From NCBI GenBank assembly GCA_049583595.1, contig JBAUWE010000166.1, forward strand, positions 4,913-68,912: 64,000 bases of DNA. Reading direction: 5' to 3'. Each line of letters begins with the position of its first letter. Position 1 is the first letter of the stretch. The position numbers and the translations under genes are program-made. This document shows positions 25,025-64,000 of the stretch, piece by piece. The DNA is from Terriglobia bacterium. GTDB lineage: Bacteria; Acidobacteriota; Terriglobia; UBA7540. The notes beneath the pieces were generated by a model. The model was given only the letters and a program-made list of their open reading frames with translations. It was not told the DNA's origin and made no database searches.

Positions 25025-25054
25025 GGAAGGCGACCGAGAAGAGAGGAAATTGCC

Positions 25055-26629: not shown

Positions 26630-26630
26630 C

Positions 26631-42796: not shown

Positions 42797-43681
42797 TCAG
42801 ATGTGCACGGCCAGGACGGGACTGGTTCCCAACTGGATCACGCGTTGCGTTGTGGAGCCGAACAAGGCAAGGTCCACCGCGTTGCGGCCTCGCACTCCCA
42901 TCACCACAAGGTCGATCTCATTCTCAAGGGCAATCTGAAGAATCTCCTGGTAGGGCCTGCCGATGCGGACAGCAGCATGCACTTTGCACCAGTCGCCGGC
43001 TTCCGGCGGCGCCAGTTCCTCAAGCCTTCGGGTGACGTCACCCACGCACTTTTGCAGGTCATCAGTGGGAGGCACGTCTTCAAGAACGTGGAGCAGAGTG
43101 AGGTCCGCGTTGTACTCCATGGCCAGTGACAACGAGTAGGTAAGGGCGCGGGTCGAATAATCGGAAAAGTCCGTGCAAAAGAGAATCTTCTTCAGCCGCA
43201 CCGGCTCCTCGGCGTCCTCCGGATGGACGAAATCGTGGGCGGGCTTGCGAACCACCAGAACGGGACAATGGGCTTTCCTTAAAATTTTCTCGGTCACCGA
43301 TCCCATGGTCAGATGGTCAAACCCGTGGCGCCCGTGTGTTCCCATCACAATCAGATCGGCAGCCTGGCTTTCAGCGAAAGCCAGAATGCAATCCGGCACC
43401 GTTCCCTTGTGCACGAAACGCTGGATTTGAAATCCATTTCCCCGGCGCGCCGACATCAGGTCAGAAAGTTTCTGGTCGGTACTGGCTTCAAGGTTCCAGA
43501 AAACTTCGTTGATGGCGTCCGGAAAAGCGTAGTAGGGATAGGTGGAAGTCAGCGGTTGGATGACGTGCTGCAGCAGCAGTTTTGCGGCGTAATGCTGTGC
43601 CAATGACTGGGCGTATTCGTAAGCCTTGACAGAGTACTCAGAAAAGTCAACCGGGCAGAGAACCTTTTCGATTCTGAGCAT
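42797..43681 (-). CDS. tandem-domain universal stress protein
   Basis: ORF 42797..43819, start moved to ATG 43681 after GAGGAG. Two UspA domains, each ending ..GSVT/GSTT..PVLVV. Confidence 0.85.
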   Translation of the reverse strand: MLRIEKVLCPVDFSEYSVKAYEYAQSLAQHYAAKLLLQHVIQPLTSTYPYYAFPDAINEVFWNLEASTDQKLSDLMSARRGNGFQIQRFVHKGTVPDCILAFAESQAADLIVMGTHGRHGFDHLTMGSVTEKILRKAHCPVLVVRKPAHDFVHPEDAEEPVRLKKILFCTDFSDYSTRALTYSLSLAMEYNADLTLLHVLEDVPPTDDLQKCVGDVTRRLEELAPPEAGDWCKVHAAVRIGRPYQEILQIALENEIDLVVMGVRGRNAVDLALFGSTTQRVIQLGTSPVLAVHI

Positions 43682-43854
43682 CGCGGCTCCTCTCAAAAAA
43701 ACCGCTGGGAGGAGCGAGTCCCCGTCTTGCTGGGGCCGGCTGGCTTGCCTCTCCTGCCCAGAAGCTAACCTGCACTCCTCGCAGCTATCCCTCCCAGCAG
43801 ACGACAGGCTAACAAACACAGCGGCGCAATGCCGTGACCAGGGTTACCAGCGGT

Positions 43855-43870
43855 TGTGACCGTGCTCACA
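43855..43870 (+). promoter_or_regulatory. perfect CRP-type palindrome in the divergent USP intergenic region
   Basis: TGTGACCGTGCTCACA. GACAAT (-10-like) lies at 43892..43897, 32 bp from the site centre, oriented toward the USP gene at 44031. Confidence 0.5.
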
Positions 43871-49356: not shown

Positions 49357-49653
49357 ATGCTTAAAATAACGTTTAAGGACACGCCGGGGAGTACAAAAGT
49401 GAAACTGGAAGGTAGGCTTGCCGGACCGTGGGTCGAAGAGCTGGAGCGGAGTTGGACAGAACACTCGCCTCAAGCTTCTGAAAATGTCATAATAGATTTA
49501 TCGGATGTGACCTACATTGACCCTGAAGGGAAAAGACTCTTGGCCCGCATGGTAGACAAGGGGTTCTGCTTCGAGGGAACGAACTTAATGACAAAATATG
49601 TAATTGATGAAATTACACGTGTTGGAATACGTTCGGGTAGGAACGGAGGTTAA
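49357..49653 (+). CDS. STAS-domain protein (anti-sigma-factor-antagonist-like)
   Basis: 98 aa. ..VKLEGRLAGPWVEELE...VIIDLSDVTYIDPEGKRLL.. is a typical STAS/SpoIIAA-like pattern. Its stop lies 1 nt before the next start. Confidence 0.7.
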   Translation: MLKITFKDTPGSTKVKLEGRLAGPWVEELERSWTEHSPQASENVIIDLSDVTYIDPEGKRLLARMVDKGFCFEGTNLMTKYVIDEITRVGIRSGRNGG

Positions 49654-49654
49654 G

Positions 49655-50371
49655 ATGAGATCGCCATACGGATTGGAACTGGTCGAAGATTGCCACACCT
49701 GCTCGAACAAGGCCGACGGGTTCTTTTGTGATCTTTCTCCGGAAGGACTGAAAGCATTCGAGGCGATCAAGTACACGACTGCGTATCCCTCTGGCGCGGT
49801 GCTGTTTGTGGAAGGACAATCCGCCCAGGGTGTTTTTCTGCTCTGCAAAGGCCGCGTGAAGATCTCAATGACCTCCGCCGAAGGCAAGACACTGATTCTG
49901 AGAATCGTTAAGCCGGGAGAAATCCTGGGATTGCATGCGACGGTTTCTGACACTGCTTTTCAGGCCACCGCTGAAACTCTGGAGCCCTGCCAGGTGAACT
50001 TCATCAAACGCGACGACTTCCTGCGTCTGCTTCGGGACCATGGAGACGCCTCCATCCACGCGGCGCAGCAGTTGAGCGGCAGTTATCAGACCGCGTGCGA
50101 GCAGGTGCGCTCACTGGGTCTTTCACAGTCAGCGCCGGAAAAGCTGGCCCGCTTCCTGCTGGATTGGTCGTCTAAAGGGCAGTCTTCCAATCAGGGAATC
50201 CGGGTGAAACTCACGCTGACTCACGAGGAGATCGGCCAGATCATTGGAACTTCCCGGGAAACCGTGACGCGCACGCTGAGCGAATTCAAGTCCAAGCACC
50301 TTGCCGAGCTGAAGGGCTCGACCCTGGTGATCCAGAACAAGACCGCACTCGAAGCTTTCCTGGGCGGCTAG
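49655..50371 (+). CDS. Crp/Fnr-family transcriptional regulator
   Basis: ORF 49604..50371, start moved to ATG 49655 after GGAGG. cNMP-binding-like beta-roll (GAVLFVEGQSAQGVFLLCKGRVKIS). HTH with recognition helix SRETVTRTL, the R-E-x-x-x-R pattern seen in CRP. N-terminal C-x2-C-x8-C. Confidence 0.88.
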   Translation: MRSPYGLELVEDCHTCSNKADGFFCDLSPEGLKAFEAIKYTTAYPSGAVLFVEGQSAQGVFLLCKGRVKISMTSAEGKTLILRIVKPGEILGLHATVSDTAFQATAETLEPCQVNFIKRDDFLRLLRDHGDASIHAAQQLSGSYQTACEQVRSLGLSQSAPEKLARFLLDWSSKGQSSNQGIRVKLTLTHEEIGQIIGTSRETVTRTLSEFKSKHLAELKGSTLVIQNKTALEAFLGG

Positions 50372-51127: not shown

Positions 51128-51604
51128 ATGAAGAAAATCCACCCTCCTCCTGCCGGAGATCCCAAGGCGAGTAAAATGAGAAAACCTTTGCCACCTGTGG
51201 CGCTCACGGCGTTAAGGACCATTCAGACAACCCGGGTCTGCCCGAAAGGGCACGAGCTTTTCCTGGAGGGACAATCGCCGCAAGGCATCTTTATCCTCTA
51301 CGCGGGCCGCGTCGAGCTTTCCGTAACCGACGCACATGGCCGGCAGGTGGCACTGGGCACGGCGCTGCCGGGAGATGTTCTGGGACTGAGCGGGGCGTTT
51401 TCAGGAAAACACTATGAGGAAACGGCCGTGGCAGCGGTCACCTGCCGGACCGGCTTCGTCAAGTGCCCGGACTTCCTCCACTTCCTGGGCCATTATCCCG
51501 CGGCTGCCTTCTGGGTTGTCCAGTTCTTAAGCGACCGTGTAACCACCACTCTCGACCAGCTCTCCTGCATCCATCGCCAGCCGCTCAAAGGTCTTCGGCA
51601 TTAG
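51128..51604 (+). CDS. cyclic-nucleotide-binding-domain protein (Crp/Fnr-like sensor domain without HTH)
   Basis: 158 aa. Beta-roll pattern GHELFLEGQSPQGIFILYAGRVELS. It ends just after the dimerization-helix region, and no DNA-binding domain is encoded before the stop. Confidence 0.75.
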   Translation: MKKIHPPPAGDPKASKMRKPLPPVALTALRTIQTTRVCPKGHELFLEGQSPQGIFILYAGRVELSVTDAHGRQVALGTALPGDVLGLSGAFSGKHYEETAVAAVTCRTGFVKCPDFLHFLGHYPAAAFWVVQFLSDRVTTTLDQLSCIHRQPLKGLRH

Positions 51605-51645: not shown

Positions 51646-52662
51646 TCAGTAGTGGCCTTCCTCCAGCCGCACCTTGCCGTGGAACACGCGGTGAACGTAA
51701 GTGCTGTAAACGACCACGGCCATCATGCCAAAAGCATTGGCAATCAGGGACACGCGCAGAGCATGAGGTGAAGAAGCAGCGTTGTATATGTCCAGGCTGT
51801 ACTGCGGCTGAACGGTAGAAGGAAGAAGGTTTGGAAACACCGTCAGCGCAGCGGTCAGCATCAGGGCGACGACGAGCAGCACCGAAGACCGGAAGGCGGC
51901 GTTGCTGCGGTCCGCCCCGCGTGACAAAAAGCCCCAAACCAATGCCACCAGAATAAAAAAGGGTATCACCCATGCCGCAGGATGAACCTGGAACGTGCGC
52001 GGACTGCCGGAAAGGACAATAAACGTGGCGATCGTAACCACAATCACCATCGCCACCGTGACCCACCACAGCGTGCGCGACCACCTGACGGCCCTCTCGA
52101 ACAGCGCGCCCTCTGTCTTGACCCGCAGGTAATTCGATCCGTGCCAGGCCAGGACCACCACGCTCAGAATACCCGTGAGCAGCGCATAGGGGTTCAGCAT
52201 CAGGGCAAACGTTCCCTGGAAATATCCGTCCGCGCCGATCGGCAAGCCGCGCACCACGTTCCCCAGGGCAACGCCCAGCAGCAAAGCCAGCAGGATGCTG
52301 CCGACCCAGAAACCGCCGTCCCAGAGCGTCCGCCACAGGGGATTTTTGGACTGGCTTCGAAACTCAATGGAAACACCGCGCAGGATCAGCAGCCAGAGCA
52401 CCAGCATTAAAGCCAGGTAAAAACCGCTGAAAGCCACGGCATAAACCCGCGGGAACGACACCACCATCATGCCTCCGGCGGCCAACAGCCAGACTTCATT
52501 GCCGTTCCAGACAGGCCCGATGGAATTGAGCGCCAGGCGCCGCTCATCATCGGTTTTTGCAATCCAGAGCGACATGGATCCAACTCCCAAATCATATCCG
52601 TCCAGCACGGCGTAAGCTGTTAACATCGCTCCAAGCACCCAAAACCAGATTGCGTTCATCAC
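51646..52662 (-). CDS. cydB: cytochrome bd ubiquinol oxidase subunit II
   Basis: 338 aa. N-terminus WFWVLGAMLTAYAVLDGYDLGVG is a CydB hallmark. 8-9 TM helices. Confidence 0.92.
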   Translation of the reverse strand: MMNAIWFWVLGAMLTAYAVLDGYDLGVGSMSLWIAKTDDERRLALNSIGPVWNGNEVWLLAAGGMMVVSFPRVYAVAFSGFYLALMLVLWLLILRGVSIEFRSQSKNPLWRTLWDGGFWVGSILLALLLGVALGNVVRGLPIGADGYFQGTFALMLNPYALLTGILSVVVLAWHGSNYLRVKTEGALFERAVRWSRTLWWVTVAMVIVVTIATFIVLSGSPRTFQVHPAAWVIPFFILVALVWGFLSRGADRSNAAFRSSVLLVVALMLTAALTVFPNLLPSTVQPQYSLDIYNAASSPHALRVSLIANAFGMMAVVVYSTYVHRVFHGKVRLEEGHY

Positions 52663-52757
52663 TCAGAACCTCCATCGGCAGGAATCGTTTCGAATGGTTC
52701 CTGCAACACGCCGGCCCGTGGCCGCGGCTGCTTTCTGTTAGTCCATCCGCCAAGGCG

Positions 52758-54092
52758 CTAGGCCTGCGCCGCTGTGTTTTCGTGCGGCCCGTGGTGGATG
52801 ATGCGAGCCACAAGGAACAGGAAAAGAATGCCCAGCATGGCATAAATTCCGGCAAACCCCATCGTGGTGAAGATGGTTTCTCCGGCGGCAACGTTGGCGG
52901 AAGTTCCCGCCGGCGTTTTCATCAGTCCATACACCAGCCAGGGCTGCCGGCCCACTTCAGAAACCAGCCACCCGGCCTCATTGGCAATATACGGAAAAGG
53001 AATGGTGAGCATCAGCATCCACAGGAACCAGCGGTTGGAGTGAAGCTTGCGCCTCCACAGAAGGAACAGGCCGATCAGCATCTGGGCGATAAAGATGGTT
53101 CCCAGCCCCACCATGATGTGATAGCAGTAATAAGTGAGTTCAACGGGCGGCCAGAGGTCCCTGGGATAGCTGTTCAGCCCGTCGACGGTAGCGCGAAAAT
53201 TGCCATAGGCCAGGAAGCTGAGAAATTCCGGAACGTAGATGGGATCAATCAGCTTGCCGGTTTGCGTATCCGGCATTCCGACAATGGCCAGCGGCGCGCC
53301 CTGCTCGGTTTCAAAAAGGCCTTCCATAGCGGCAAGCTTGGTGGGCTGGTATTTCACCACGCTGGCTCCGTTCAAGTCTCCGGTGGGAAACAATTGAGTC
53401 AGCGAAAGAATCACTCCGGCCACAATCGCCGTCTTCACGGACAACATGCCGAACTCCCGGTGACGGTCCGACAGAAGATAGAAGGCGCCAATGCCGCCGA
53501 TCACAAAAGCCGCTGTCAGCAACGACCCGTTGATGGTGTGGGCATATTGCCAGATGGCGTAAGGATTCAGCAGCACCGCCCAGAACGATTTCAACCGGAT
53601 GGCGCCGGAGGGGTCCATCACATAGCCCACCGGGTGCTGCATCCAGGCGTTGGTGGCAACAATAAAATATCCTGACAGCAGGGACCCGCCGGCCACGCCG
53701 AGGCCTGAAATCCAGTGGAGAGTCCTGCCCACGCGCTTCTCGCCCGCCAGAAACATCCCCAGAAATCCGGACTCCAGAAAGAACGCGTAGACGCCTTCCA
53801 GCGGCAGCGTCTGCCCGAAAACGCCGCCGCCAAAACTTGAGAAGCGACTCCAGTTGGTACCGAACTCAAACTCCAGCGGAATGCCTGAAACAACTCCCAG
53901 GGCAAAATTGACGGCAAAGATCTTGGCCCAGAACTGGGCCGCGTCGGCATAGCGTCTTTCCTTTGTCAGCAAGTGAAGGGTTGAAAAAAGGGCGATGAAA
54001 AAGCCCAGTCCCATGGTCAGAATGGGAAAAAGGTAGTGAAACATCACCGTGAAAGCGAACTGAATGCGGTGGGCAAAAACAGCTTCGTTCAT
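52758..54092 (-). CDS. cydA: cytochrome bd ubiquinol oxidase subunit I
   Basis: ORF 52758..54236, start moved to ATG 54092 after GGAGGG. Typical CydA motifs: RIQFAFTVMFHYLFP, a short Q-loop region and GWLVSEVGRQPW. Confidence 0.92.
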   Translation of the reverse strand: MNEAVFAHRIQFAFTVMFHYLFPILTMGLGFFIALFSTLHLLTKERRYADAAQFWAKIFAVNFALGVVSGIPLEFEFGTNWSRFSSFGGGVFGQTLPLEGVYAFFLESGFLGMFLAGEKRVGRTLHWISGLGVAGGSLLSGYFIVATNAWMQHPVGYVMDPSGAIRLKSFWAVLLNPYAIWQYAHTINGSLLTAAFVIGGIGAFYLLSDRHREFGMLSVKTAIVAGVILSLTQLFPTGDLNGASVVKYQPTKLAAMEGLFETEQGAPLAIVGMPDTQTGKLIDPIYVPEFLSFLAYGNFRATVDGLNSYPRDLWPPVELTYYCYHIMVGLGTIFIAQMLIGLFLLWRRKLHSNRWFLWMLMLTIPFPYIANEAGWLVSEVGRQPWLVYGLMKTPAGTSANVAAGETIFTTMGFAGIYAMLGILFLFLVARIIHHGPHENTAAQA

Positions 54093-54248
54093 AGACCCTC
54101 CCTCGGGCAGATACGGACCACGTTGGCAGCGCACGCCGGCGCCGTGAAGAGAAGAGGCCGTCGATCCAAGGGCAGGCTGGATAAAACCAACTGCCTGCCC
54201 CGGCGCGCTCCGGAAAGTGGGGGACCGGCCTGCCACCTTAACGCTGCT

Positions 54249-55484
54249 CTAATCCAAAAATCGGTGCTTATCCTGACCTGCAAGCCGCCAGCATTCCTGA
54301 GCAATCGCCCACTCTTCGCGCGCCGCCACCACAACCACGTGGACGGCGGAATCCGGACTTGCGATGTCGCAATCGACAGGCGACTCGTCGTTCTTCCGCC
54401 GGTCGAGCTTGAGGCCAAGAAATTCAAAGCCGGAGCAGGCTGCGGCGCGCACCTCAGGCGAGTTCTCGCCGATGCCACCTGTAAAGGCCAGCGCATCGAT
54501 GCCGCCGAGCGAAGCCGCCATGGCTCCCACAAATTTCCGCAACCAGTGAATAAACGTATCAAAAGCCAGGCTGGCGCGGGCGTTTCCGCTTTCGACGGCG
54601 GAGAGGATTTGCCGCATGTCGTCAGACACACCCGACACTCCCAGCAGGCCGGACTCGCGGTTCAGGAGTTCCTCCAGCCGGTCAGCGGAATACTTTTCTT
54701 CCCGCAGCAGATGAATGAAAATTCCGGGGTCGATGCTGCCGCTGCGGCTGCCCATCATCAGTCCTTCGAGGGGCGTGAAACCCATCGTCGTATCCACGCT
54801 GTGCCCATTCCGCACCGCAGCCAGCGAACAACCGTGACCCAGGTGACAGGTGACAATCCGCAACGATTCGAGATCCTTGCCCAGAATCCGGGCCGTGCGC
54901 CTGGCGCAGTACTGGTGGCTGATGCCGTGAAAACCGTAGCGGCGAATGCCCCGCTCGTACCAGGCGTAAGGGCCGGGGTAGATCAAGGCGTGCTTCGGGA
55001 GGGTCCGGTGAAACGCCGTGTCAAAAACAGCCACCTGAGGCCGCGACTTGAAAATCTGCTCGGCCGTGTCAATGCCGCTGACCTCGGCAGGATTGTGCTC
55101 CGGAGCAAACGCCGCGAGGCGGCTGATCTCCTGCTTCACCTCAGCCGTCACCCGCGTGGGCGCTGAATATTTCTCGCCCCCATGAACAACGCGATGGCCC
55201 ACCATATCCACTTCTTCCGGATGGGCAAGAACACGCGCCGGACCTTCCCAGAGAGTCTGCAACAATTGGCCGGCGGCCGCACTTTCCGAATCAATTCCGG
55301 GCTGCTCGTCCATCACCGGACGGCCCTCGCGCCTGACCCTTAGCCGCACATTCCCGAACGGCTCTTCCCATTCCACGTGCCCTTCCCATAACGGGACAGG
55401 CGGCGTTTGGGGCAGGGATTCCGCCAGCTCGTAGAGGCAACTCTTCAGGCTGCTTGAGCCCGCGTTGAGCACCAGGACTTTCAT
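54249..55484 (-). CDS. ackA: acetate kinase
   Basis: MKVLVLNAGSSSLK N-terminus, then ..RRYGFHGISH.. and ..GGIGENS.. motifs. Confidence 0.92.
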   Translation of the reverse strand: MKVLVLNAGSSSLKSCLYELAESLPQTPPVPLWEGHVEWEEPFGNVRLRVRREGRPVMDEQPGIDSESAAAGQLLQTLWEGPARVLAHPEEVDMVGHRVVHGGEKYSAPTRVTAEVKQEISRLAAFAPEHNPAEVSGIDTAEQIFKSRPQVAVFDTAFHRTLPKHALIYPGPYAWYERGIRRYGFHGISHQYCARRTARILGKDLESLRIVTCHLGHGCSLAAVRNGHSVDTTMGFTPLEGLMMGSRSGSIDPGIFIHLLREEKYSADRLEELLNRESGLLGVSGVSDDMRQILSAVESGNARASLAFDTFIHWLRKFVGAMAASLGGIDALAFTGGIGENSPEVRAAACSGFEFLGLKLDRRKNDESPVDCDIASPDSAVHVVVVAAREEWAIAQECWRLAGQDKHRFLD

Positions 55485-55656: not shown

Positions 55657-57129
55657 CTATTGAGAAGGTTCCGTGGCCCCACCCAAACCCAGGTCCGTCA
55701 GGATCTTCGGGTTGGCTTCACCCATGGAAAGCAGGTTGTGGCAGACGTTGCAGTCTTGCGGGACCATCTTGCTGGAGTCAGAGGCCTCATGCAATGCTCC
55801 ATGGCAGCGGAAACATCCAGGGAAGTTCATGTGTCCGAGGTTGTCAGGGTAGGTTCCCCAGTTCACCTTCATCTTGGGGAAAACATTCTGCTGGTAGATA
55901 GCAACCAGGCCCTTGACGGCCTTGGAAACCTCCGCACGGTTCTGAGAAAAGACCTGGGGGTATTTCTCGCTGTAGTACTTGACCAGGCCGGAAGAGATCT
56001 TTTGTTCAGCTTCCTTCTGGCTGTCGTACTTGCCCTGTAAGAGCGACAGCCCTTCCTTTTTTACAAAGGGGAGGGATGTTGGGACGGCCCCATTGGCCAT
56101 GGCTTGGTCTATCGCGTCACCGGGCAGATGGAAAACGTGGGTAGGCTGGTTGTGGCAATCGATGCAATCCATCACCCGGCCGCTTCCGGGGTTGACGGTT
56201 TTGGGATCCGTCTTCTCACCGACAAAGAGCGTTTTCCTGCCCGTCTGCGCATTGCTGTACTCAGCCCAGTTCACCTTCTGCCGGCTCGAGTCTGACCCGT
56301 AGCGGATGGTGATTCCGGGTCCGACGTGGGCGCCATGGATTCCGCCCTGGCCGTATCCTCCACCGATGTGCATGAGCAGGACCGTCTTGGAGAGAGTGTT
56401 GGTTTCATCGTCAGCGTAATGCGGAATGACCACCAGGCGGTTGCCTTCAAACCTGGCCGGCCAGTGGCACTGCTCACAGGTCTGCCGCGCCGGCCGCAGG
56501 TTGGTGACCGGAACCGGAATCGGACGAGGGTAGGCACTAAAGATGGTTGCAAAAACCTGATAGGTGCCCGACAACTTGCTCCGCACAAACCATGAAGCGC
56601 CCGGACCGATATGGCACTCGACACAGGCCACGCGCGCGTGGGGCGAGTGTTCATAGGCAACATATTCCGGCTGCATGACCGTGTGACAGGTCTTTCCGCA
56701 GAAGGTCACGCTATCCATATAATTGACGCCGGAGTAAAGAAGCTGGGCGCCGATAATCACATTGACGACGGTGGTAACACCCACGAAAAACAGGAGCCGA
56801 CGCAGTTCTATATTCTTAAAATCCAGAGGGGGAAAATCGGAAGGATAGATGCCCCTGTGCCGCTCACGCCGGGCCCGAAGAACAATGCCTAACGGGATGA
56901 GGATGAGTCCGCCGAAGAAGACCGCGGGCAGACCCATAAAGGTCAGGATCCCGGCGTAGGGATTGTCGGTGAATCCGCGAAAGATGACCGGCAACAGCGA
57001 AAGCCACAGGACAGCGCCGGTGGTGACCAGCACAACTCCGATCCGGCTGAGCCAATTCCCTGAAAGGTAAATGTATGGAGAAAGCCATGCCTTTAATCCA
57101 TTGCCTTGATTAACCATCCGTGCCTTCAT
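55657..57129 (-). CDS. inner-membrane multiheme cytochrome c, ImcH-like (NapC/NirT-type quinol dehydrogenase region), 6 CXXCH
   Basis: Three N-terminal TM helices, then FCGKTCHTVMQPEY..SPHARVACVECH, the NapC/NirT/NrfH-type motif. Six CXXCH motifs: CGKTCH, CVECH, CEQCH, CIDCH, CFRCH, CNVCH. The start is ATG 57129 or 57117. Confidence 0.8.
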   Translation of the reverse strand: MKARMVNQGNGLKAWLSPYIYLSGNWLSRIGVVLVTTGAVLWLSLLPVIFRGFTDNPYAGILTFMGLPAVFFGGLILIPLGIVLRARRERHRGIYPSDFPPLDFKNIELRRLLFFVGVTTVVNVIIGAQLLYSGVNYMDSVTFCGKTCHTVMQPEYVAYEHSPHARVACVECHIGPGASWFVRSKLSGTYQVFATIFSAYPRPIPVPVTNLRPARQTCEQCHWPARFEGNRLVVIPHYADDETNTLSKTVLLMHIGGGYGQGGIHGAHVGPGITIRYGSDSSRQKVNWAEYSNAQTGRKTLFVGEKTDPKTVNPGSGRVMDCIDCHNQPTHVFHLPGDAIDQAMANGAVPTSLPFVKKEGLSLLQGKYDSQKEAEQKISSGLVKYYSEKYPQVFSQNRAEVSKAVKGLVAIYQQNVFPKMKVNWGTYPDNLGHMNFPGCFRCHGALHEASDSSKMVPQDCNVCHNLLSMGEANPKILTDLGLGGATEPSQ

Positions 57130-57398
57130 CCTCCTCAGGCTGCCTTGAATTGCCGGCCCAACCCCGCCGCCGCTCTATTGGAGCTTCCCCTTACCCTCAA
57201 CGGGTGCGGACTCTTCTCCTTTGTCTCATCCGCGGACGCCGCAGATTGCCTCAAGCCTTCTATCCTATCAGCATCAGGAACAAACCCGGCAGGTTGCCCC
57301 CCGTTGAAATCGTCGTTTAGAAACTGCCTTGGCCGTCGCAACTGATGAATACGACAAACGAGTTTTCCCAATACGCTATGCCCGCAACCAGACCGCGC

Positions 57399-58226
57399 TT
57401 ACCGCCGGAAAGAAAACAGCGTGAGCAGAAGCAGAATAAAGCCGGTGGCGATGGCGGCAAAGCCCACAACCATTCCGAACGTCACGAACCATCGTTGGGG
57501 TTCCCCTGCACGGAAGCTCTCAAGTTTTCCCTGCTCCACGAGCCGTTCGTACTCCTCGGGATGCTTTTCGGCCAATTCTGTTTCCGTCTGGCGCCCGGTG
57601 AAAATCACTTTATCCATCGGGAAGCTGCCGGGGCGCAAGTGAGTATTGAAAAAGTGAATCGTGAAAATGAACCACACCGCCAGCAGCGCCTCGTCGCCAT
57701 GAAGAAGCAGCGCAACGTTAAACCACGAGCCCGGCACAAATCTGGCCACAAAGGGGGCAAACCACATGCTATAGCCGGAGAGCCCAATGACACCCATGCC
57801 CCAGAAGACAGCCCAATAATCGAACTTCTCCCAGTAGGCAAAGCGATCGAATTTCGGTTTGGGACCCAGTCCAAAGAACCAGCGAAAATGCGCTCCCATT
57901 TGAGCAAGGTCCTTGGGCTGCGGCACAAGGGATTCGGGCCCCCAAAGCATCCCAAACTTTCTTTTGACAAAAACCTGGCGGAAAATGTTCCCCACATGAA
58001 AAAGAAATGCCGCCGTCAGCAAGACACCAAAGGCTTTGTGGAAAAAGAGAATGGCGCCAAACCCTCCCACCGCGTGCGCAAAGCCGGACGCCCAGGCGGC
58101 ATAACTGAAGCGAAGCGTCAGGCCGGTCAGCGCCAGGCCCAGAAAAGTGGAGAACAGGGTCGCGTGAAGCAACCGCTTGCCTGGGGAAAACCGATAGTAA
58201 TAGCGGACCTGCTCCCCTTGATTCAA
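57399..58226 (-). CDS. membrane b-type cytochrome (FdnI/HydC, Ni_hydr_CYTB-like)
   Basis: 275 aa. TTG start lies after GAGGTGAAG and 18 nt after the upstream stop. Four or more TM helices with conserved His (RLLHATL.., LFFHKAF.., LLLHGDE.., TIHFFNTHLRP). Confidence 0.7.
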   Translation of the reverse strand: MNQGEQVRYYYRFSPGKRLLHATLFSTFLGLALTGLTLRFSYAAWASGFAHAVGGFGAILFFHKAFGVLLTAAFLFHVGNIFRQVFVKRKFGMLWGPESLVPQPKDLAQMGAHFRWFFGLGPKPKFDRFAYWEKFDYWAVFWGMGVIGLSGYSMWFAPFVARFVPGSWFNVALLLHGDEALLAVWFIFTIHFFNTHLRPGSFPMDKVIFTGRQTETELAEKHPEEYERLVEQGKLESFRAGEPQRWFVTFGMVVGFAAIATGFILLLLTLFSFRR

Positions 58227-58244
58227 TACTTCACCTCAGCGGCG

Positions 58245-59459
58245 TTAATCAGACGCGGTTTCCTCACCCTTGCCTCCACTCTTGCGACGCTCCACCATGG
58301 AGCGGATAAACCACAGAATTGTATGCAACCCGAAAAAGGTAAAGACCGCCAGCATCAGGAAATTCATAAAGCGCGCCGTGTAATAAAGTCCCGGGTAGTG
58401 CGTCCTGTCGCGGTGATTGGCATGCGGGTCATAAGAGGTGAAACTCCTCGTAACCTCCCCGTGACAGTTGCCGCAGGTCTTCGCCAGGTTTGCAGGCGCA
58501 ATGGAAGATCTAGGGTCGGAGGCAGGAAGAATTTCGTGAGCTTCGTGGCAGCTCCAGCAACGGGCTGTCACCACAAACCCCAGCGTCGTCACCTGGCCGT
58601 GGAACGTGTCGTGGTAGGTCTCCGCCCGGCCGGCGTGGCAGCTTCCGCATTTGGCCGTCGTCTTCAATTGCCAGGCCGCCGTCCTGACACTCTCGATGGA
58701 ATGCGCTGTATGGCAACTGGTGCAGACGGGTGCTTCAGAGGCGCCGGCCTTGAGAGCTTTGCCGTGAGCACCCATCAGATACTTTGCCTCGATCCCGGCG
58801 TGGCATGAACCGCACGTCGCGGGAACATTCATTCGAAACACCTTGCTGTTCGGATCTTTGGGGCCCAAAATCTTGTGCGCTCCATGGCAACTGGTGCAGG
58901 TTGCCGCAACCAGCAGGCCATCGCGCGTGAGGGCAAACCCATGAATGGAATCGATGTAGAGCGCGTAGACGTTCGGCAGACCGTACTTTTTTGCCAGTTC
59001 GGGATTTCCGTGGCAGGTTCCGCAGGTCCGCGGCAGATTCAGCGCATAAACCGGCGACCTCGAATCGTGAACGGAGACAATGGAATGCGGGTTTCCGTGG
59101 CACTTCAGGCAGGCCGGCGATGAAGCACTTTTCATCACGGCCTCGTGGACGCTGTCATTGACGTCCGAACTCTCAGTGGAGTGGCAGGCGCCACAGGCCA
59201 CTTTCTTGACCGGCAACTTGTGAGGGAATTCCGTGACGTCGGAATGACACGCCTGGCAGCCTAGCGCCCCGTGAATGGAAGAACTGAATTCCTTCGGATC
59301 AACCCGGAGACTGTGGCCCTGCTCATCCACAAAACCGGACTGGCCGTGGCAGCCCAGGCAGGCACTGTCCTGCAGGGAGCCGGAACCCTGAGCCCAGCAT
59401 ACAGATGTGAGCAGAAACACTACTACCGACACCCCAACACACCGCTGCCAAGCGTTCAT
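58245..59459 (-). CDS. 11-heme c-type cytochrome with C-terminal TM anchor
   Basis: Signal peptide. Eleven CXXCH motifs: CLGCH, CQACH, CGACH, CLKCH, CGTCH, CTSCH, CGSCH, CTSCH, CGSCH, CWSCH, CGNCH. C-terminal hydrophobic helix FMNFLMLAVFTFFGLHTILWFI. Confidence 0.85.
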   Translation of the reverse strand: MNAWQRCVGVSVVVFLLTSVCWAQGSGSLQDSACLGCHGQSGFVDEQGHSLRVDPKEFSSSIHGALGCQACHSDVTEFPHKLPVKKVACGACHSTESSDVNDSVHEAVMKSASSPACLKCHGNPHSIVSVHDSRSPVYALNLPRTCGTCHGNPELAKKYGLPNVYALYIDSIHGFALTRDGLLVAATCTSCHGAHKILGPKDPNSKVFRMNVPATCGSCHAGIEAKYLMGAHGKALKAGASEAPVCTSCHTAHSIESVRTAAWQLKTTAKCGSCHAGRAETYHDTFHGQVTTLGFVVTARCWSCHEAHEILPASDPRSSIAPANLAKTCGNCHGEVTRSFTSYDPHANHRDRTHYPGLYYTARFMNFLMLAVFTFFGLHTILWFIRSMVERRKSGGKGEETASD

Positions 59460-59489
59460 TTTGAGCCGTCATTTCCAGGGAATCAAGGC

Positions 59490-59771
59490 TCATCCCGGTA
59501 ATTTGGCGCCTTGCTGCCACACGTAATACAGGTACATGACTCCAATCAACAGACCGTAAGCCACCACGAGGGCCGTCAGGATCTTGCCCCACCGCTCGAT
59601 GACTTCCAGTTTATGGCTGAGCTTAACCTGGGCGGCAACTTGTGGCGCGTCACCGTCCAGCACATGAATCGATTCGTCTTCGTGGCTGGCCATCATATTC
59701 CGGTAGATGGCCAACACACCAACCACCACCACAAGAGGTATCCATGTTGCAAGATAAAACGTGAGGTTCAT
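59490..59771 (-). CDS. 93-aa two-TM membrane protein, unknown function
   Basis: ORF 59490..59789. ATG 59771 lies 5 nt after GGAGG. Two hydrophobic helices flank an acidic loop. Confidence 0.5.
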   Translation of the reverse strand: MNLTFYLATWIPLVVVVGVLAIYRNMMASHEDESIHVLDGDAPQVAAQVKLSHKLEVIERWGKILTALVVAYGLLIGVMYLYYVWQQGAKLPG

Positions 59772-59825
59772 ACCAACCTCCAGTCGCAATTACTGCGGGT
59801 TCCAGGCCCGGGAAAATTCCGGGAG

Positions 59826-60059
59826 CTACTTCTTGCCTTCCTTGGCCGCAGATTCACAAGCCTTCAGATTCTTCTTCTTTGCATAGCACTTGCCCACATC
59901 GTTCAGTTCTTTCTGGCCCATTTTCACATGGCATGTATTGCACGAGACCTTCTCCTTCTTGGCAATCTTCATGTTGCCAAAGGAAGTGAGAGAAGACATC
60001 GCGAGAGCCACGCCCAAGGTGATACCGAATACTATAAGTTTCCTGATGGTGCTCATCAT
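59826..60059 (-). CDS. 77-aa Lys-rich mini monoheme cytochrome c, exported
   Basis: ORF 59826..60077. ATG 60059 lies 5 nt after GGAGG. Signal peptide. Single CNTCH motif and three additional Cys. The mature part is very Lys-rich. Confidence 0.55.
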   Translation of the reverse strand: MMSTIRKLIVFGITLGVALAMSSLTSFGNMKIAKKEKVSCNTCHVKMGQKELNDVGKCYAKKKNLKACESAAKEGKK

Positions 60060-60111
60060 TACGACCTCCGGACTCAACGAACAGGTGATGGCGTCTTTCC
60101 TGAATCGGGTT

Positions 60112-60459
60112 CTATTTCTTCTTACCTAGCTGGCGAATGTATGCTACCAGGCCGTTAATTTCATCCTTCGAGAACTGGCTGCCGTAGGCCGGCATGACTC
60201 CTTTGCCCTTGGCGATGATATTGTGAAGATCGGCGTCTGATTTCGACTGCACAGCCTTCGAGCGCAGGTCGGGAACCTTCATGCTTTTCCCCATGGGACT
60301 GTTCCCGCTGCCGTCCTTGGCATGGCACATCACGCACTTGGCATCAAACGTGGGCTGGCCGCTCTTGGCCTGCACCTGATAGGCAGGCGTCAGAAGCCAT
60401 GCGCCGGCCATCAGCGCTGAGAAGACCGCAAGTGCTGCGGTGTTAACGACCTTATTCAT
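60112..60459 (-). CDS. class I monoheme c-type cytochrome, periplasmic
   Basis: ORF 60112..60465. ATG 60459 follows AAGGAGGAAG. Signal peptide. CVMCH plus a distal Met in ..KGKGVMPAY.., typical of c551/c6-like cytochromes. Confidence 0.85.
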   Translation of the reverse strand: MNKVVNTAALAVFSALMAGAWLLTPAYQVQAKSGQPTFDAKCVMCHAKDGSGNSPMGKSMKVPDLRSKAVQSKSDADLHNIIAKGKGVMPAYGSQFSKDEINGLVAYIRQLGKKK

Positions 60460-60553
60460 TATCACTTCCTCCTTCGTGGCATCCCTTATTAAGAAACACG
60501 TGCCTCTATATCATCTCTTGTTTCAGGTCAGATTTCAACCGGCCATGCTTTCG

Positions 60554-62548
60554 CTAGAACTCACGCGTAAAGCGAACCGTCAGCATGTTGGCTCCGAAGT
60601 TGTTGGCGGTGATGATTTCCTGGATGTAATAGGTGCGCTGCAGATCCACAGAAAGCCGGCCGGTCTTGGGGATATTGAAATAAACCGTGCCCGTACCGAG
60701 CGGCCAGGTCAGCGGTCCGTAAACCGGACTGGTCCCAGCTTCTTCACCGAGCCCTGTGGTGCGCACAAAGTTTCCGGTAAAGCGGATGCCAAAGTACTTG
60801 ACCGGTTCAGCAGCAAGCCCTGCCTGCCAGATGCGGTTGAGGGCCTGGTCCCGGAGGGCGTAAGCCGTCCCGGGCGTCGGAACTCCTCGCTGCCAGGCGA
60901 TGATGCCCGTAGCCAGTTCGTTGTCGTAAGTGAGCCCGCCGAAAAGAGAGTATTTCGGGTTAATCGTGTAATTCAGCATCACGGAATTCGAATGGACCTT
61001 GGCGCGGTAATCCGTGGCGAGGAGTTTTTGATCGACCATATAAAGCTCGTCGCTCAGAGTGAGCTTGTCCGTCAGGTGGAGGTTCCCCACCACGCGTCCG
61101 GTGGTATTGGTGTGCGCAGTCAGCGCAGTGTAGGAGGCGCCGTTATTGTAAGTCCGCAACTCACCGCGAATGTCGAACCGCTTGAAAGGCCGGTAGAAGG
61201 CGCTGATGGAAGGAGATACGGCGTGATTTTTAAGTGAGCGAGCATCATCAATTACGCCATCTTCCCTCATCTCGACGTCAGACTTGTAAAGCTGAACACC
61301 CGGGCTGAGCACCAAGTTGTGGACCGGCGTGAAGACCATCTTCACATCGCCCTCATGCAGGGTGAACTTCCAGTCATTGGCAAACTCCCCGTTCGTAGGA
61401 TCCGTTCCATTAAACAAAGCGGTGAAGATACCCTCGGTCGTGGTGCTAAACCTGCTGTACCGGTAATCGAAATCGATGTCCCACCAGGGGGTGACGTGAT
61501 AGGCGAACCCCTGTCGAAAAATATGGTTGGGCTCGCTGACGGTTGACCGTCCGGTTTCAGACACGGCGTAGGGGTCCGGGTTGTCGCCGTTGAATGACCG
61601 GTCGAGCCGGGCCGGGCCACTGTAGCGGTAAAAGATGTAACTACCACGCATGTCGAGACGGGAAGAGGGTTTCCCTGAATAGGAGAATTCACTGACCGGC
61701 GTCGACAACCTACGGTAGTCCGTCCAGGAAGCCTGCGTCAGGGGCTGGAGAAGATTGCTGGCGGTCGTCGTGTCAATCGCAAGTTGGGGTGAAGTAACGT
61801 TGTTGAAACCCGTGTCGGATGTAAAAGTCTGGAAGCCAACGTTGTAATGCAAGCTCCATTCATGCCAGGTGTAGTCAATGCCGCCCGTGAAGCGGTTGGT
61901 GTTGTCAAACGTGGGCGCATACAGGTAGTAAGCGTTCGCCCTGGCAAAGCCGCCTAAACTACCCGGCTGGTCAAAGAAGTAAGGCGAGAAGGTCGTGAAA
62001 GTCGCGCCGCTGAAAGAAGTCTTGTAATACTGGAAGTGGAAACGCAGGTTGTCTGTGGCGTGCAGGGTAAAGTCGACGGAACCGACTTTCCTCACATTCG
62101 CCCAGTCGTGGTTGTCAGTAAGCCCCGTGGTGTTCCGTGTTGGTAGAATCACCCCGTCATTCTGGTTCCAGTAAAAGTACGACTGGCGCCAGTTGACTCG
62201 CAGATCATAGAGCTTGGGCTTGGAGAGGGTGAACTGCGCACTCGGATAAGGATCTCCGCCCATACCGCTCGTGGTCAGCGAAAAGTTGTTCGCAAACGGG
62301 TTGGTCCCGTCGTTGTGGCCGAAGAGGCTGAAGTCCATAAGCCTCGGCCCACTCTTCAGATTGTAAAGCTCCTCGAACATCGGCTGATAGCCTTTGACGT
62401 CCGTGAAGCGGTATCCCATGCTGGCGGAGCCTTGGACCCCGAAACCTCCCCACTGAAGCGGAGGTTCGCTTTGGCCCTGCGCCCTGAGCACAGGCAAACT
62501 CACCAGAAAGGCTAACATCAGGAAAAACAGACCGCGTGTGATTCTCAA
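60554..62548 (-). CDS. large outer-membrane beta-barrel protein, MtrB/PioB-like porin candidate
   Basis: 664 aa. TTG start lies 6 nt after GGAGGAGG and 14 nt after the stop of the MtrA-like gene. Signal peptide ..PVLRAQG. Alternating aromatic and polar beta-strand pattern throughout. Terminal ..VRFTREF. No Cys in the whole protein. Confidence 0.65.
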   Translation of the reverse strand: MRITRGLFFLMLAFLVSLPVLRAQGQSEPPLQWGGFGVQGSASMGYRFTDVKGYQPMFEELYNLKSGPRLMDFSLFGHNDGTNPFANNFSLTTSGMGGDPYPSAQFTLSKPKLYDLRVNWRQSYFYWNQNDGVILPTRNTTGLTDNHDWANVRKVGSVDFTLHATDNLRFHFQYYKTSFSGATFTTFSPYFFDQPGSLGGFARANAYYLYAPTFDNTNRFTGGIDYTWHEWSLHYNVGFQTFTSDTGFNNVTSPQLAIDTTTASNLLQPLTQASWTDYRRLSTPVSEFSYSGKPSSRLDMRGSYIFYRYSGPARLDRSFNGDNPDPYAVSETGRSTVSEPNHIFRQGFAYHVTPWWDIDFDYRYSRFSTTTEGIFTALFNGTDPTNGEFANDWKFTLHEGDVKMVFTPVHNLVLSPGVQLYKSDVEMREDGVIDDARSLKNHAVSPSISAFYRPFKRFDIRGELRTYNNGASYTALTAHTNTTGRVVGNLHLTDKLTLSDELYMVDQKLLATDYRAKVHSNSVMLNYTINPKYSLFGGLTYDNELATGIIAWQRGVPTPGTAYALRDQALNRIWQAGLAAEPVKYFGIRFTGNFVRTTGLGEEAGTSPVYGPLTWPLGTGTVYFNIPKTGRLSVDLQRTYYIQEIITANNFGANMLTVRFTREF

Positions 62549-62562
62549 GCGACACCTCCTCC

Positions 62563-63957
62563 TTATTTCAGCAGGAACTCATCAAAGTTCGATCCATGGA
62601 CCGCCACGTGGCAGCGTGTGCAGGGTCCAGAACCCTGGTAGCCACCCCGGCCGTGTGGTACGTTCGCCTGGCCGTGGAAGCCCGACGTGCCATGAATGGC
62701 GGAGTGGCACTGCAGGCAGAGCAGCCGCTGCTCACGGCGCTTCAGCAGGAAGTTGTTCACGCTTCCGTGCGGAGAGTGGCAAGCCGTGCAGCCTTCAACT
62801 CTCACGACTGCGTGCTCATAGACAAACGGCCCGCGCTTTTCCACGTGGCATTTGACGCAGCTCTCCCAATTCGCTTGCGTAAGCTGGTGGTGATTCATGG
62901 TGCCGTGCGGGTTATGGCAATCGGTACACTTCATGAAGCCCTCGGGAACCCGGTGATGCTCCGGCAATGCGAATTGCGCTTGCACAGTCCGGTGGCACCC
63001 GAAGCAAAGCTCAGGTTGCGGCTTCTTCAACAGGCCGTCATTCAGCCAGGCATTTTCCTCTTTCAGCCTTGGCACAGAGAAAAACGATGCCTGCGCGGGC
63101 TGGAGCGCGGGCTTCCCGGCATCCGCCACCTCAACCGGATGGATGCTATGGCAGTCCATACAACTGACTCCTGCCGTCGCATGAACCGAGTGCTGGAAAG
63201 CATCCTGCGGTGTCCCTGTCTGGTGGCACTGCATGCACCGCGCGGAGTTGTCCTTGGGGTTGGCGTCAAACTTGAAGATGAGCTTCATGCCCGCTTCCAT
63301 CTTGGCAACATCGCCAGCCGCATTCTGCTCAGCATTGGCGTGGGCGGCGCCCGGCCCGTGGCAGATCTCGCATCCCGTCACGTGCTGTGGCCCGGAGGGC
63401 GGCGGAGTTTGCGCCGATTCGTTCTGGTCCTGTCCCTTCAACGTCATCAGGTAATCAACAAGCTCGTTGAGGTTCTGGGTAGGGGTGTGCGGGGGAAGCG
63501 TGGGCATGATGGTTCCGGCCCGCCGCTTCAGCATCCGGTCCATCAACTCCTGGCGGGTCCTGCGCGCGCCCACGTCACCCAGGGCCGGGCCGGCTGTGCC
63601 GCCCTTGCCGCCAATCTGGTGACATCCCGCGCACATCATGTCGGTATAAAGCTTCCTGCCCGCCGCAACGGAGGGCGACTCCGCCGCTCCGGGGGAAGCC
63701 GGCGTGGCCTCGACCGCCCCGCCCTGTTCACCATGAGGCGACTTGAAAAATTGCCGGGCCTCCGCACGGTGGCAGCCCGCGCAAACCTGGGGACCAACAT
63801 AATCATTCGGATTGGTCTCCACAGGCGGCGTCCAGGCAACCGATGGCCCCTTGGCAGGGGCTGGCCGCCTTTGGGCGTAGAGAAATGCCGTGGGCAAAAA
63901 TCCAGCCAGGCAGATCAGCAACGCGGCGGTTTTGATGAAACTCAGCAGTCGCTTCAT
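62563..63957 (-). CDS. MtrA/DmsE-family-like multiheme c-type cytochrome, 11 CXXCH (decaheme core + inserted class I heme domain)
   Basis: ORF 62563..63990. ATG 63957 (MKRLLSF..) gives a signal peptide. Eleven CXXCH motifs. The C-terminal ..CTRCHVAVHGSNFDEFL resembles the DmsE/MtrA-family ending. Lies directly upstream of the barrel gene. Confidence 0.8.
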   Translation of the reverse strand: MKRLLSFIKTAALLICLAGFLPTAFLYAQRRPAPAKGPSVAWTPPVETNPNDYVGPQVCAGCHRAEARQFFKSPHGEQGGAVEATPASPGAAESPSVAAGRKLYTDMMCAGCHQIGGKGGTAGPALGDVGARRTRQELMDRMLKRRAGTIMPTLPPHTPTQNLNELVDYLMTLKGQDQNESAQTPPPSGPQHVTGCEICHGPGAAHANAEQNAAGDVAKMEAGMKLIFKFDANPKDNSARCMQCHQTGTPQDAFQHSVHATAGVSCMDCHSIHPVEVADAGKPALQPAQASFFSVPRLKEENAWLNDGLLKKPQPELCFGCHRTVQAQFALPEHHRVPEGFMKCTDCHNPHGTMNHHQLTQANWESCVKCHVEKRGPFVYEHAVVRVEGCTACHSPHGSVNNFLLKRREQRLLCLQCHSAIHGTSGFHGQANVPHGRGGYQGSGPCTRCHVAVHGSNFDEFLLK

Positions 63958-64000
63958 GTCGCTCTCCCCTCTTTCACATTCGTTAACCATTGAATTCCTC

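Follow-up and report, generated by a model that had tools for sequence, protein, structure and literature searches.

We analysed a 64,000-nucleotide stretch of the genome of a Terriglobia bacterium (contig JBAUWE010000166.1, positions 4,913 to 68,912 of the forward strand), referred to here as the window. Close to its end lies an array of eight co-directional open reading frames (ORFs) on the minus strand, g1 to g8, which very probably encodes a functional conduit of the Mtr/Mto type for electrons between the outer membrane and the quinone pool (Table 1). The array combines an MtrA-like cytochrome and an MtrB-like barrel at the outer membrane with small monoheme cytochromes and two candidate quinone-linked modules at the inner membrane, a split CbcL-type protein (g6 and g7) and an ImcH-like cytochrome (g8). 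Relative to the known Mtr-type systems, the adjacency of an ImcH-like gene, the splitting of the CbcL-type protein and the eleven-heme form of MtrA are new. We infer the completeness of the conduit, the co-transcription of its genes and the direction of its electron flow from the evidence below.

The eight ORFs span 55657-63990, and all were found at the positions and with the sizes given in a preliminary description of this DNA that was made from the sequence alone. That description counted 30 CXXCH motifs. We likewise found 30 heme motifs, of which 29 are CXXCH, distributed as 11 + 1 + 1 + 11 + 5 over g1, g3, g4, g6 and g8, and one is a CX3CH (C144 of g8). Six-frame translation yielded 29 CXXCH within 55657-64000 versus 1 across the remaining 55.6 kb of the window, a clustering that is far beyond chance. 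Measured between the longest ORFs, the spacers from g1 to g8 are 14, 88, 34, 36, 30, 18 and 269 nt. Later start codons reproduce the previously given values of 94, 52 and 54 nt, and they agree with the genes as called in relatives (115, 76 and 93 aa). Placing the first gene about 40 nt from the window edge was also correct, as g1 begins 43 nt from it with the MKRLL start. The same strand runs on, as described, into ackA and cydAB, both of which were located. Scans for Sigma-70 promoters and intrinsic terminators gave results at or below shuffle expectation and were uninformative on co-transcription, and nothing was found by Rfam and tRNA scans of the window.

Table 1. Location of the array, its neighbours and associated sites. 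Positions are those of the window unless a related locus is named; TM, transmembrane helix.
Feature	Position	Strand	Product and remarks
g1	62563..63990	-	475 aa, 11 CXXCH; putative MtrA/MtoA-like periplasmic, outer-membrane-inserted cytochrome; likely start 63957 (MKRLL, signal peptide)
Class-I (His/Met) monoheme domain inside g1	63388..63729	-	~107 aa, between MtrA-type heme 1 and heme 2
g2	60554..62548	-	664 aa, no Cys; predicted MtrB-like outer-membrane barrel sheath
g3	60112..60465	-	117 aa, 1 CXXCH (CVMCH), signal peptide, MPAY Met ligand motif; soluble class-I monoheme cytochrome c
g4	59826..60077	-	83 aa (77 from later ATG), 1 CXXCH; mini monoheme cytochrome
g5	59490..59789	-	99 or 93 aa; small 2-TM protein
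g6	58245..59459	-	404 aa, 11 CXXCH, signal peptide and C-terminal TM (367-385); putative N-terminal half of split CbcL/MtoC-type protein
g7	57399..58226	-	275 aa, five hydrophobic helices; putative b-type cytochrome and C-terminal half of split CbcL/MtoC-type protein
g8	55657..57129	-	490 aa, 3 TM, CX3CH then 5 CXXCH; ImcH-like; likely start M5 at 57117
ackA	54249..55484	-	Acetate kinase; 172 nt past g8
cydA and cydB	51646..54236 (52758-54236, 51646-52662)	-	Cytochrome bd quinol oxidase; PF01654 and PF02322 in syntenic genes
CRP/FNR-family regulator	49604..50371	+	cNMP_binding, HTH_Crp_2 and Crp domains; syntenic in L001 and L003
Gene with cNMP-binding domain only	51128..51604	+	
Perfect TGTGA-N6-TCACA palindromes	L004:7998-8013, 8296-8311		Upstream of g1 homolog; past window position 64000

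The g1 product can be assigned by sequence to the DmsE/MtrA family of cytochromes, as had been proposed. It scores 211 bits against TIGR03508 (DmsE family; curated cutoff 192.2) and matches the solved MtrA chain 6r2q_A with an E-value of 4.3e-31, with nine CXXCH motifs (C207 to C457) in register with those of MtrA. Eleven His residues outside the motifs are invariant across 33 g1 homologs, which is sufficient for ten bis-His hemes. The protein differs from an exact ten-heme bis-His pattern in that its 11 CXXCH comprise ten of the MtrA type and one of the class-I His/Met type. The latter lies in a region (residues 108-185) that is matched by both PF00034 and PF13442. Homologs of g1 occur in two forms, one with ten hemes in which hemes 1 and 2 are 30 residues apart, and one with eleven hemes and ~107 extra residues at that place. 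In the alignment the insert is a clean indel with a conserved CAGCH and a G-T-I/V-M-P Met-ligand motif, and ten-heme orthologs without it are present in sister loci.

In the solved MtrAB complex, the N-terminus and heme A1 of MtrA extend ~20 Å into the periplasm, where soluble carriers dock. By analogy, the inserted domain of g1 would sit at the periplasmic entry of the wire. This placement is drawn from the alignment and the published MtrA structure; an AF2 monomer model of g1 (33 homologs) had a mean pLDDT (per-residue model confidence) of 46.5 and was unusable. Outside the window's clade, a separate class-I gene downstream was found in 0 of 12 eleven-heme loci versus 26 of 35 ten-heme loci (raw counts, not corrected for relatedness), and the eleven-heme loci examined there are bare two-gene units. 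The window's clade carries both the g1 insert and the separate g3. As the class-I cytochrome is either fused or separate across these loci, the pattern suggests that it is the direct partner of the periplasmic end of MtrA.

The second gene starts 14 nt after the stop codon of g1, and its modelled product is an MtrB-like sheath of ~26 strands that is too divergent for the family hidden Markov model. The AF2 model of g2 (pLDDT 72, predicted template-modelling score 0.61) has ~26 long strands; the MtrB barrel has 26. In a Foldseek comparison with the PDB the top match was MtrB (6r2q_B, E-value 1.4e-11, template-modelling scores 0.57/0.58), whereas other large barrels such as TonB-dependent receptors and LptD scored 0.26-0.37. 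No Pfam or NCBIfam model matched g2 itself, and the MtrB/PioB Pfam model gave no match even at E-values up to 10; among 29 g2 homologs, six reached this model (PF11854, MtrB_PioB; best E-value 1.5e-8). A profile of the 29 homologs found no match among PDB sequences, MtrB included, even at E-values up to 10, so that within the PDB the tie between g2 and MtrB is one of fold comparison only. The earlier reading of g2 as an Mtr-type barrel thus stands in strand number and best fold, but not in a MtrB/PioB Pfam match for g2 itself. The barrel has neither the fold of an unrelated outer-membrane protein nor too few strands to sheath a cytochrome, and g1 does not fall outside the DmsE/MtrA family. A porin-cytochrome complex of the Geobacter Pcc/Ext type was considered and rejected, as g1 passes the DmsE/MtrA model and the best fold of the barrel is MtrB.

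At the inner membrane, g6 and g7 together are best read as a split protein of the CbcL/MtoC type, likened to it by architecture and not by the sequence of Geobacter CbcL. The published architecture of CbcL, MtoC and MtrH is a single polypeptide with 3-23 CXXCH and mostly six TM helices. With 11 CXXCH and 1 + 5 = six helices, g6 and g7 jointly fall within this range, but they are two genes 18 nt apart. The g7 product is a putative b-type cytochrome of the FdnI/HydC/Ni_hydr_CYTB type, with His 21, 63, 176 and 191 inside predicted helices; of its five helices, three exceed the scoring threshold and two were assigned by reading the sequence. Its match to PF01292 barely passes (30.9 bits, cutoff 30.1), and it has no PDB relative. 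Among the best 150 representative homologs of g7, ~100 are proteins of 400-1126 aa that match only in their C-terminal ~265 residues. In five such fused proteins g6 aligns N-terminally (residues ~30-350; 33-42% identity, E-values 1e-59 to 1e-102) and g7 C-terminally (44-48%), in collinear order. Cluster members of the fused CbcL-like proteins bore no informative annotation. In sister loci one fused gene of 571-600 aa with nine CXXCH occupies the g6/g7 position. The two genes are thus collinear on fused multiheme-c/cytochrome-b proteins of CbcL/MtoC architecture, which bears out their description as a split CbcL-like protein.

The last gene, g8, carries the full published signature of ImcH, to which it is assigned by these described features and not by the GSU3259 sequence. 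This signature consists of three N-terminal TM helices, a NapC/NirT region, a first heme motif of the form CX3CH by the membrane domain, and then 5-9 CXXCH. By hydropathy, the helices of g8 lie at 32-50, 66-84 and 109-127; its CX3CH (CGKTCH) follows directly past the third helix, and CXXCH motifs are found at 169, 218, 322, 439 and 460. PF03264 (NapC/NirT) matches residues 114-198 with 34.9 bits (cutoff 24.1), and similarity to NrfH was also detected (NrfH model, E-value 1e-14; NrfH structure 2j7a, E-value 6e-4). The preliminary description of g8 as an ImcH-like NapC/NirT cytochrome with three TM helices and six hemes therefore agrees with each published feature. As its first ATG is unconserved among relatives, M5 is the likely start.

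Three small genes lie between these modules and the outer-membrane pair. Similarity places g3 among the soluble class-I cytochromes: it matches PF13442 (E-value 2.4e-15) and 48 PDB chains at E-values up to 0.01, comprising c552, c6, CcoP domains and similar proteins. None of these 48 matches is a chain named MtoD, the presence of an MtoD structure in the PDB copy used being unchecked. The proposed parallel with MtoD thus extends to the presence of a periplasmic class-I monoheme cytochrome in the cluster, but not to detectable similarity. A class-I monoheme gene follows the barrel gene in 42 of 63 scorable loci. The mini-cytochrome g4 is ~45 aa long when mature and has a conserved KEKxxCTxCHVKMG motif and a Cys pair. 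In three rearranged loci (L015, L016 and L051), where the ImcH-like gene is found on the opposite strand or beyond the barrel gene, the g4 homolog is still directly beside it. As g4 stays with the relocated ImcH-like gene, we take it to be a putative partner of ImcH. The most conserved gene of the array is g5, with two hydrophobic helices, no Pfam or NCBIfam match and 84-92% identity in loci where the barrel has 70-75%. In L033 a divergent g5 copy was seen upstream of a cytochrome gene on the opposite strand.

How common is this arrangement? The g2 barrel family has >800 detectable members, and the mtrAB-like pair was found in at least 79 species-level genomes, all of them metagenome-assembled genomes (MAGs) and nearly all from Acidobacteriota. 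Carriers include Terriglobia, Bryobacterales, Ca. Acidoferrum, Ca. Sulfopaludibacter, Pyrinomonadaceae and Polarisedimenticolia. One locus labelled Verrucomicrobiia (L044, DATHRB010000071.1) has a 51% identical barrel and the full core of MtrA-like, barrel and class-I genes, which could be due to mis-binning or to transfer between phyla. The loci fall into three architectures. The first is a two-gene unit with an eleven-heme cytochrome. The second consists of the MtrA-like cytochrome, the barrel, a class-I cytochrome, a CymA-like NapC/NirT protein of 213 aa and one further small protein (L083, L084), followed in L062 by cydAB. The third, that of the window, has the mini-cytochrome, the 2-TM protein, a fused or split CbcL-like protein and the ImcH-like protein, usually followed by ackA and cydAB. 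A fused CbcL-like gene and an ImcH-like gene are joined to the core in L085 and six sister loci, while in L015 and L016 the ImcH-like gene and the mini-cytochrome lie on the strand opposite to the core. In all, cydAB occurs near the mtrAB-like pair in three different arrangements. The description had presented the eight-gene locus as unusual; this holds for the presence of ImcH beside an Mtr-type module, but the locus is not a one-off, as it belongs to a conserved acidobacterial family with several architectures.

The recurrence of the core with three non-homologous quinone-linked modules, in several orientations, and with cydAB in three arrangements, is the main argument that the genes g1 to g8 work together. 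A very improbable alternative is that they do not form one system, the MtrAB-like pair and g3 being one unit and g4 to g8 serving an unrelated periplasmic reductase pathway that is adjacent by chance or co-regulation. Such a division would fit the 269-nt gap upstream of g8, where an alignment of the spacer showed moderate conservation only and no clear motif, as well as the content of most of the distant loci, which have only g1-g2(-g3), and the position that ImcH-like and g4 genes can take on the opposite strand. However, the core is repeatedly joined to quinone-linked cytochromes of three non-homologous types and in several orientations, a non-orthologous fused CbcL-like gene fills the g6/g7 position in sister loci, and no alternative terminal reductase is encoded nearby.

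Two of the rearranged loci contain further ORFs. In L015 (5612-8479) and in L016, the mtrA-like gene is directly preceded by ResB-like and CcsA-like ORFs, which suggest a putative system II for cytochrome c biogenesis. In the same loci (L015 at 723-1811) an ORF with the sequence features of a bc-type cytochrome b stands beside the pair of ImcH-like and mini-cytochrome genes.

Parts of this picture were known before. Homologs of PioAB have been reported in Acidobacteria, Acidobacteriia dominate the DmsE/MtrA and MtrB/PioB matches in tropical soils, and peat Acidobacteriota are reported to transcribe Mtr-like clusters. Genes of the CbcL type inside mtoAB/mtrAB clusters are likewise known, as MtoC and MtrH. 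In a 2018 survey of quinol oxidases, imcH was never found next to mtrAB/mtoAB genes, and the array contradicts it in this respect. The claim that an Mtr-type module together with both Geobacter-type inner-membrane modules is unusual is therefore upheld for ImcH, whose adjacency is novel relative to that survey, but not for CbcL, whose adjacency was already known. A literature search, thin on subscription journals, found no account of the array, of the eleven-heme MtrA form or of the pair of ImcH and mini-cytochrome.

The closest known systems are the Mto clusters, MtoAB-MtoD-CymA/ImoA of Sideroxydans lithotrophicus ES-1 and MtoAB-MtoC-MtoD of Gallionella ES-2 and Dechloromonas. These also have a decaheme cytochrome adjacent to a 26-strand barrel, no MtrC-type protein, and in the cluster a class-I periplasmic monoheme cytochrome and a quinone-linked inner-membrane cytochrome of the NapC or CbcL type. 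The acidobacterial loci L083 and L084 share the four-gene content. Unlike Mto, the array occurs in Acidobacteriota, in a heterotrophic context and with ackA and cydAB as linked genes; an extra class-I heme domain is present in g1, while g3 lacks detectable similarity to MtoD and g2 escapes the MtrB/PioB Pfam model. The array also adds an ImcH-like gene, a mini-cytochrome and a 2-TM protein, its CbcL-type protein is split in two, and the direction of flow that we lean towards is opposite to that of the Fe(II)-oxidising Mto systems.

With MtrCAB of Shewanella (6R2Q) the array shares the order of cytochrome then barrel, the nine aligned hemes of g1 and MtrA, and the MtrB fold of g2. It differs in having no MtrC/OmcA partner, in a g2-MtrB identity of only ~12%, in periplasmic carriers that are class-I monohemes and not STC or FccA, and in an inner-membrane partner other than CymA. 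Compared with ImcH (GSU3259) of Geobacter sulfurreducens, g8 has the same three N-terminal TM helices, NapC/NirT region, membrane-adjacent CX3CH and length near 490 aa, but 5 instead of 6 CXXCH, and it adjoins an mtrAB-like pair and is paired with a conserved mini-cytochrome. CbcL (GSU0274), MtoC and MtrH have an N-terminal periplasmic multiheme c part and b-type helices of the FdnI/HydC type, six helices in total, as g6 and g7 together probably do; MtoC and MtrH are also located in a cluster of the mtrAB/mtoAB type. Unlike in these proteins, the version in the array is split after the first helix, and it has 11 hemes versus 9 in the fused form of the sister loci. Finally, the peat clusters EET1 and EET2, according to the main text of a preprint (Fiorito et al. 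2026), likewise come from uncultured Terriglobia, have syntenic porin and multiheme cytochrome genes of low identity to Shewanella and Geobacter, and are proposed to be linked to organic-matter respiration. Unlike the array, they came to light through a search in the vicinity of extracellular multiheme cytochromes, and each cluster presented there includes a surface cytochrome. That main text does not mention ImcH, CbcL or cytochrome bd.

As g1 lies near the window edge, we read the DNA beyond position 64000 in close relatives, namely L004 and L034 (Danish soil MAG contigs with 94-96% identical barrels) and L001; an exact look-up of the g2 sequence itself in public assemblies gave no match. 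In L004 and L034, g1 is preceded by ~1 kb without coding sequence, a small ORF rich in Cys, the gene of a large surface-type protein without hemes, and biotin genes, and the picture in L001 is similar. An MtrC/OmcA-like gene, which the preliminary description had considered possible there, was absent from these relatives; none was found in the window, within 8.5 kb upstream of g1 in L004 or L001, or in L083-L087. Therefore, g1 is the first gene of the array. The spacer upstream of g1 contains two blocks that are conserved across relatives, each with a perfect TGTGA-N6-TCACA palindrome. Over all fetched loci, this palindrome has 24 sites in 46.8 kb of g1-upstream DNA versus 21 in 1278 kb elsewhere, an enrichment of ~31-fold, and in 18 of 67 related loci a perfect palindrome of this CRP type precedes the mtrA-like gene by 76-607 nt. 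Within the window, perfect copies occur at 43855-43870, 36 nt upstream of a tandem Usp gene, and at 22444-22459, in the spacer before 22929. A classical FNR site (TTGAT-N4-ATCAA) was dropped, as its matches were at chance level in the window and in L004.

The CRP/FNR-family regulator encoded at 49604-50371 is syntenic with the array and a candidate for its regulation. Its recognition helix, SRETVTR, resembles SRETVGR of E. coli CRP. The protein also has an N-terminal CxxC-x8-C motif that is reminiscent of FNR-type sensors, and 1 kb away from its gene lies that of a sigma-54 activator of 825 aa (46048-48525, plus strand), whose sensor domains are PAS, PAS and GAF.

On the other side of the array, ackA is syntenic in most close relatives. 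It is absent in L001 (16894-17747) and split into two ORFs (241 and 161 aa) in L003 (15311-16524), while cydAB is kept, and ackA is therefore not obligatory in the unit. The longest cydA ORF (492 aa) has ~48 extra N-terminal residues compared with the 444-aa calls in relatives, and the true start is probably the methionine of MNEAVF near 54092. Farther away on the minus strand, at 39890-43819 and 33154-34461, are a 926-aa fusion of an ADP-forming acetyl-CoA synthetase-like protein with a GNAT domain, tandem Usp and an iron-containing alcohol dehydrogenase. With its CRP/FNR regulators, Usp, iron-containing alcohol dehydrogenase, acetyl-CoA synthetase-like protein, ackA and cydAB, the neighbourhood looks like a low-oxygen, acetate-forming, heterotrophic island. 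Glycoside hydrolases are present in the window, and we read the host as a heterotroph because of them.

Sequence alone cannot settle the direction of electron flow. We lean, if only slightly, towards net outward flow, from the oxidation of menaquinol to soluble or chelated Fe(III) and humics under low oxygen. Each linked inner-membrane component in the window is quinone-coupled and the only linked oxidase is bd; a cytochrome c oxidase was found neither in the array or its flanks nor linked in any locus examined. The Fe(OH)3/Fe2+ couple, calculated from standard values, lies at ~+0.4 V at pH ~5, so that high-potential class-I carriers would be compatible with outward, downhill flow that starts from menaquinol. 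To date, ImcH has been implicated in quinol oxidation only, and in Geobacter it serves acceptors above -0.1 V. In the solved MtrAB complex heme A10 is surface-exposed, and Shewanella without MtrC still reduces soluble Fe(III) chelates. Outward flow is favoured because of these points, the low-oxygen and heterotrophic neighbourhood, the three arrangements of cydAB near the pair and the enriched CRP-type palindromes.

Under such a scheme, the CRP-family regulator would switch the array on when oxygen is limiting. The ImcH-like g8, probably with the mini-cytochrome g4 and the 2-TM protein g5, would oxidise menaquinol at the inner membrane, as would the CbcL-like pair g6/g7, and the monoheme cytochrome g3 would carry the electrons across the periplasm. 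The fused class-I domain, which by analogy with solved MtrA would lie beside heme 1 at the periplasmic tip, would be their point of entry into the MtrA-like wire, and heme 10 on the cell surface their exit. As there is no MtrC-like surface cytochrome, they would go to soluble or chelated Fe(III), humic quinones or other diffusible oxidants rather than to mineral surfaces. Cytochrome bd would be an alternative outlet for menaquinol at traces of O2, and ackA would supply ATP from incomplete oxidation to acetate.

Several points weigh against this reading. An MtrA-like cytochrome, a barrel, a class-I monoheme cytochrome and a NapC- or CbcL-type protein with no MtrC are the content of the Fe(II)-oxidising Mto and Pio systems. 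His/Met class-I cytochromes usually feed terminal oxidases and not low-potential decahemes. Proteins of the CbcL/MtoC and CymA types are thought to work both ways, and the ImcH and CbcL assignments were made via architecture. The 269-nt gap upstream of g8 may divide two transcription units. The family is known from the genes of MAGs alone (79 loci), and menaquinone and heterotrophy are assumed from knowledge of Acidobacteria and from the gene content of the window, not read from the genome.

Inward flow is accordingly a possible, though rather unlikely, alternative. Fe(II) or reduced humics would be oxidised at the surface heme of the MtrA-like protein, as in Mto or Pio, and the fused class-I domain and g3 would hand the electrons on to a heme-copper oxidase whose genes lie elsewhere; in a side branch, the ImcH-like and CbcL-like proteins would be quinone reductases, and bd would serve microoxic conditions. 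The lack of an MtrC/OmcA-like gene in the window and in the 8.5 kb upstream in close relatives is in line with this, as are the widespread four-gene form, which matches the mtoA-mtoB-mtoD-cymA content of Sideroxydans, the CbcL homologs (MtoC) in mtoAB clusters of Fe(II) oxidisers, and the resemblance of g3 to carriers of the c6, c552 and CcoP types that normally feed oxidases. However, in the loci examined no cytochrome c oxidase is linked to the array, the linked bd oxidase draws on quinol and not on cytochrome c, and ImcH has never been implicated in quinone reduction. The potential of menaquinone is ~-74 mV. Electron transfer from Fe(II) to menaquinone at acidic pH would be steeply uphill and useful mainly to autotrophs, whereas the window is that of a polysaccharide-degrading heterotroph.

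The possible reversibility of the inner-membrane modules, considered for both the CymA/ImoA and the CbcL/MtoC types, also raises the improbable alternative of a redox valve. The conduit would then bring the menaquinone pool into equilibrium with redox-active organic matter outside the cell, whichever way the electrons run, or would be non-respiratory and supply electrons either to an extracellular process, such as Fe(III) reduction that drives Fenton-type chemistry against plant polymers, or, as DmsEF does for DmsAB, to a surface enzyme. In favour of this, the family has two or three alternative inner-membrane modules, genes for glycoside hydrolases, pectinase and esterases abound in the window and related loci, and peat Acidobacteriota are reported to transcribe Mtr-like clusters where no inorganic acceptor is detectable. 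However, no gene for an extracellular redox enzyme is linked in any locus examined, the sequence gives no sign of Fenton chemistry, and the valve is less a replacement for the outward-flow model than a reading that overlaps with it. We rejected a DmsEF-type system that would supply an extracellular molybdoenzyme with electrons, as no such enzyme gene is linked in any locus.

Returning to outward flow, we offer a more specific version of it that is tentative and rather unlikely. The array may be a complete and self-contained, high-potential respiratory exit for menaquinol onto organically complexed Fe(III) and humics, in which g4 and g5 are partners of ImcH and the class-I domain is a docking and entry heme that replaces a free carrier where it is fused. 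With the same reserve, abundant soil Terriglobia would use such an exit in acidic, oxygen-poor soil.

Two further gene sets in the window stand apart from the array. On the plus strand, 23663-29897 encodes a Cus/Czc-like tripartite RND set, with an outer-membrane factor, a membrane-fusion protein with a YtkA-like domain and an AcrB-family pump, possibly for metal export. On the minus strand, 2484-4919 encodes an 811-aa protein in which a gluconate 2-dehydrogenase subunit-3-like domain is fused to a GMC-family FAD oxidoreductase.

Few bacteria of soil and peat are as abundant as the Acidobacteriota, whose anaerobic energy metabolism is almost wholly unprobed. The locus is a compact, conserved and clonable candidate path from the quinone pool to the cell surface in this phylum. 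Genomic linkage provides candidates for the partners of ImcH, namely the 45-residue mini-cytochrome and the highly conserved 2-TM protein. The class-I domain that is naturally fused into MtrA at its periplasmic end is relevant to the entry or exit of electrons in this wire and could serve engineering. The interest of the array is reduced, as the general phenomenon is known and the family is common, yet it remains substantial because the phylum is abundant and the leads on the ImcH partners and the fused entry heme are testable. If inward flow is true, a major heterotrophic phylum would be added to the Fe(II) oxidisers. If outward flow is true, the array would speak for Terriglobia that respire iron and humics, a sink that competes with methanogenesis in peat and wet soils.

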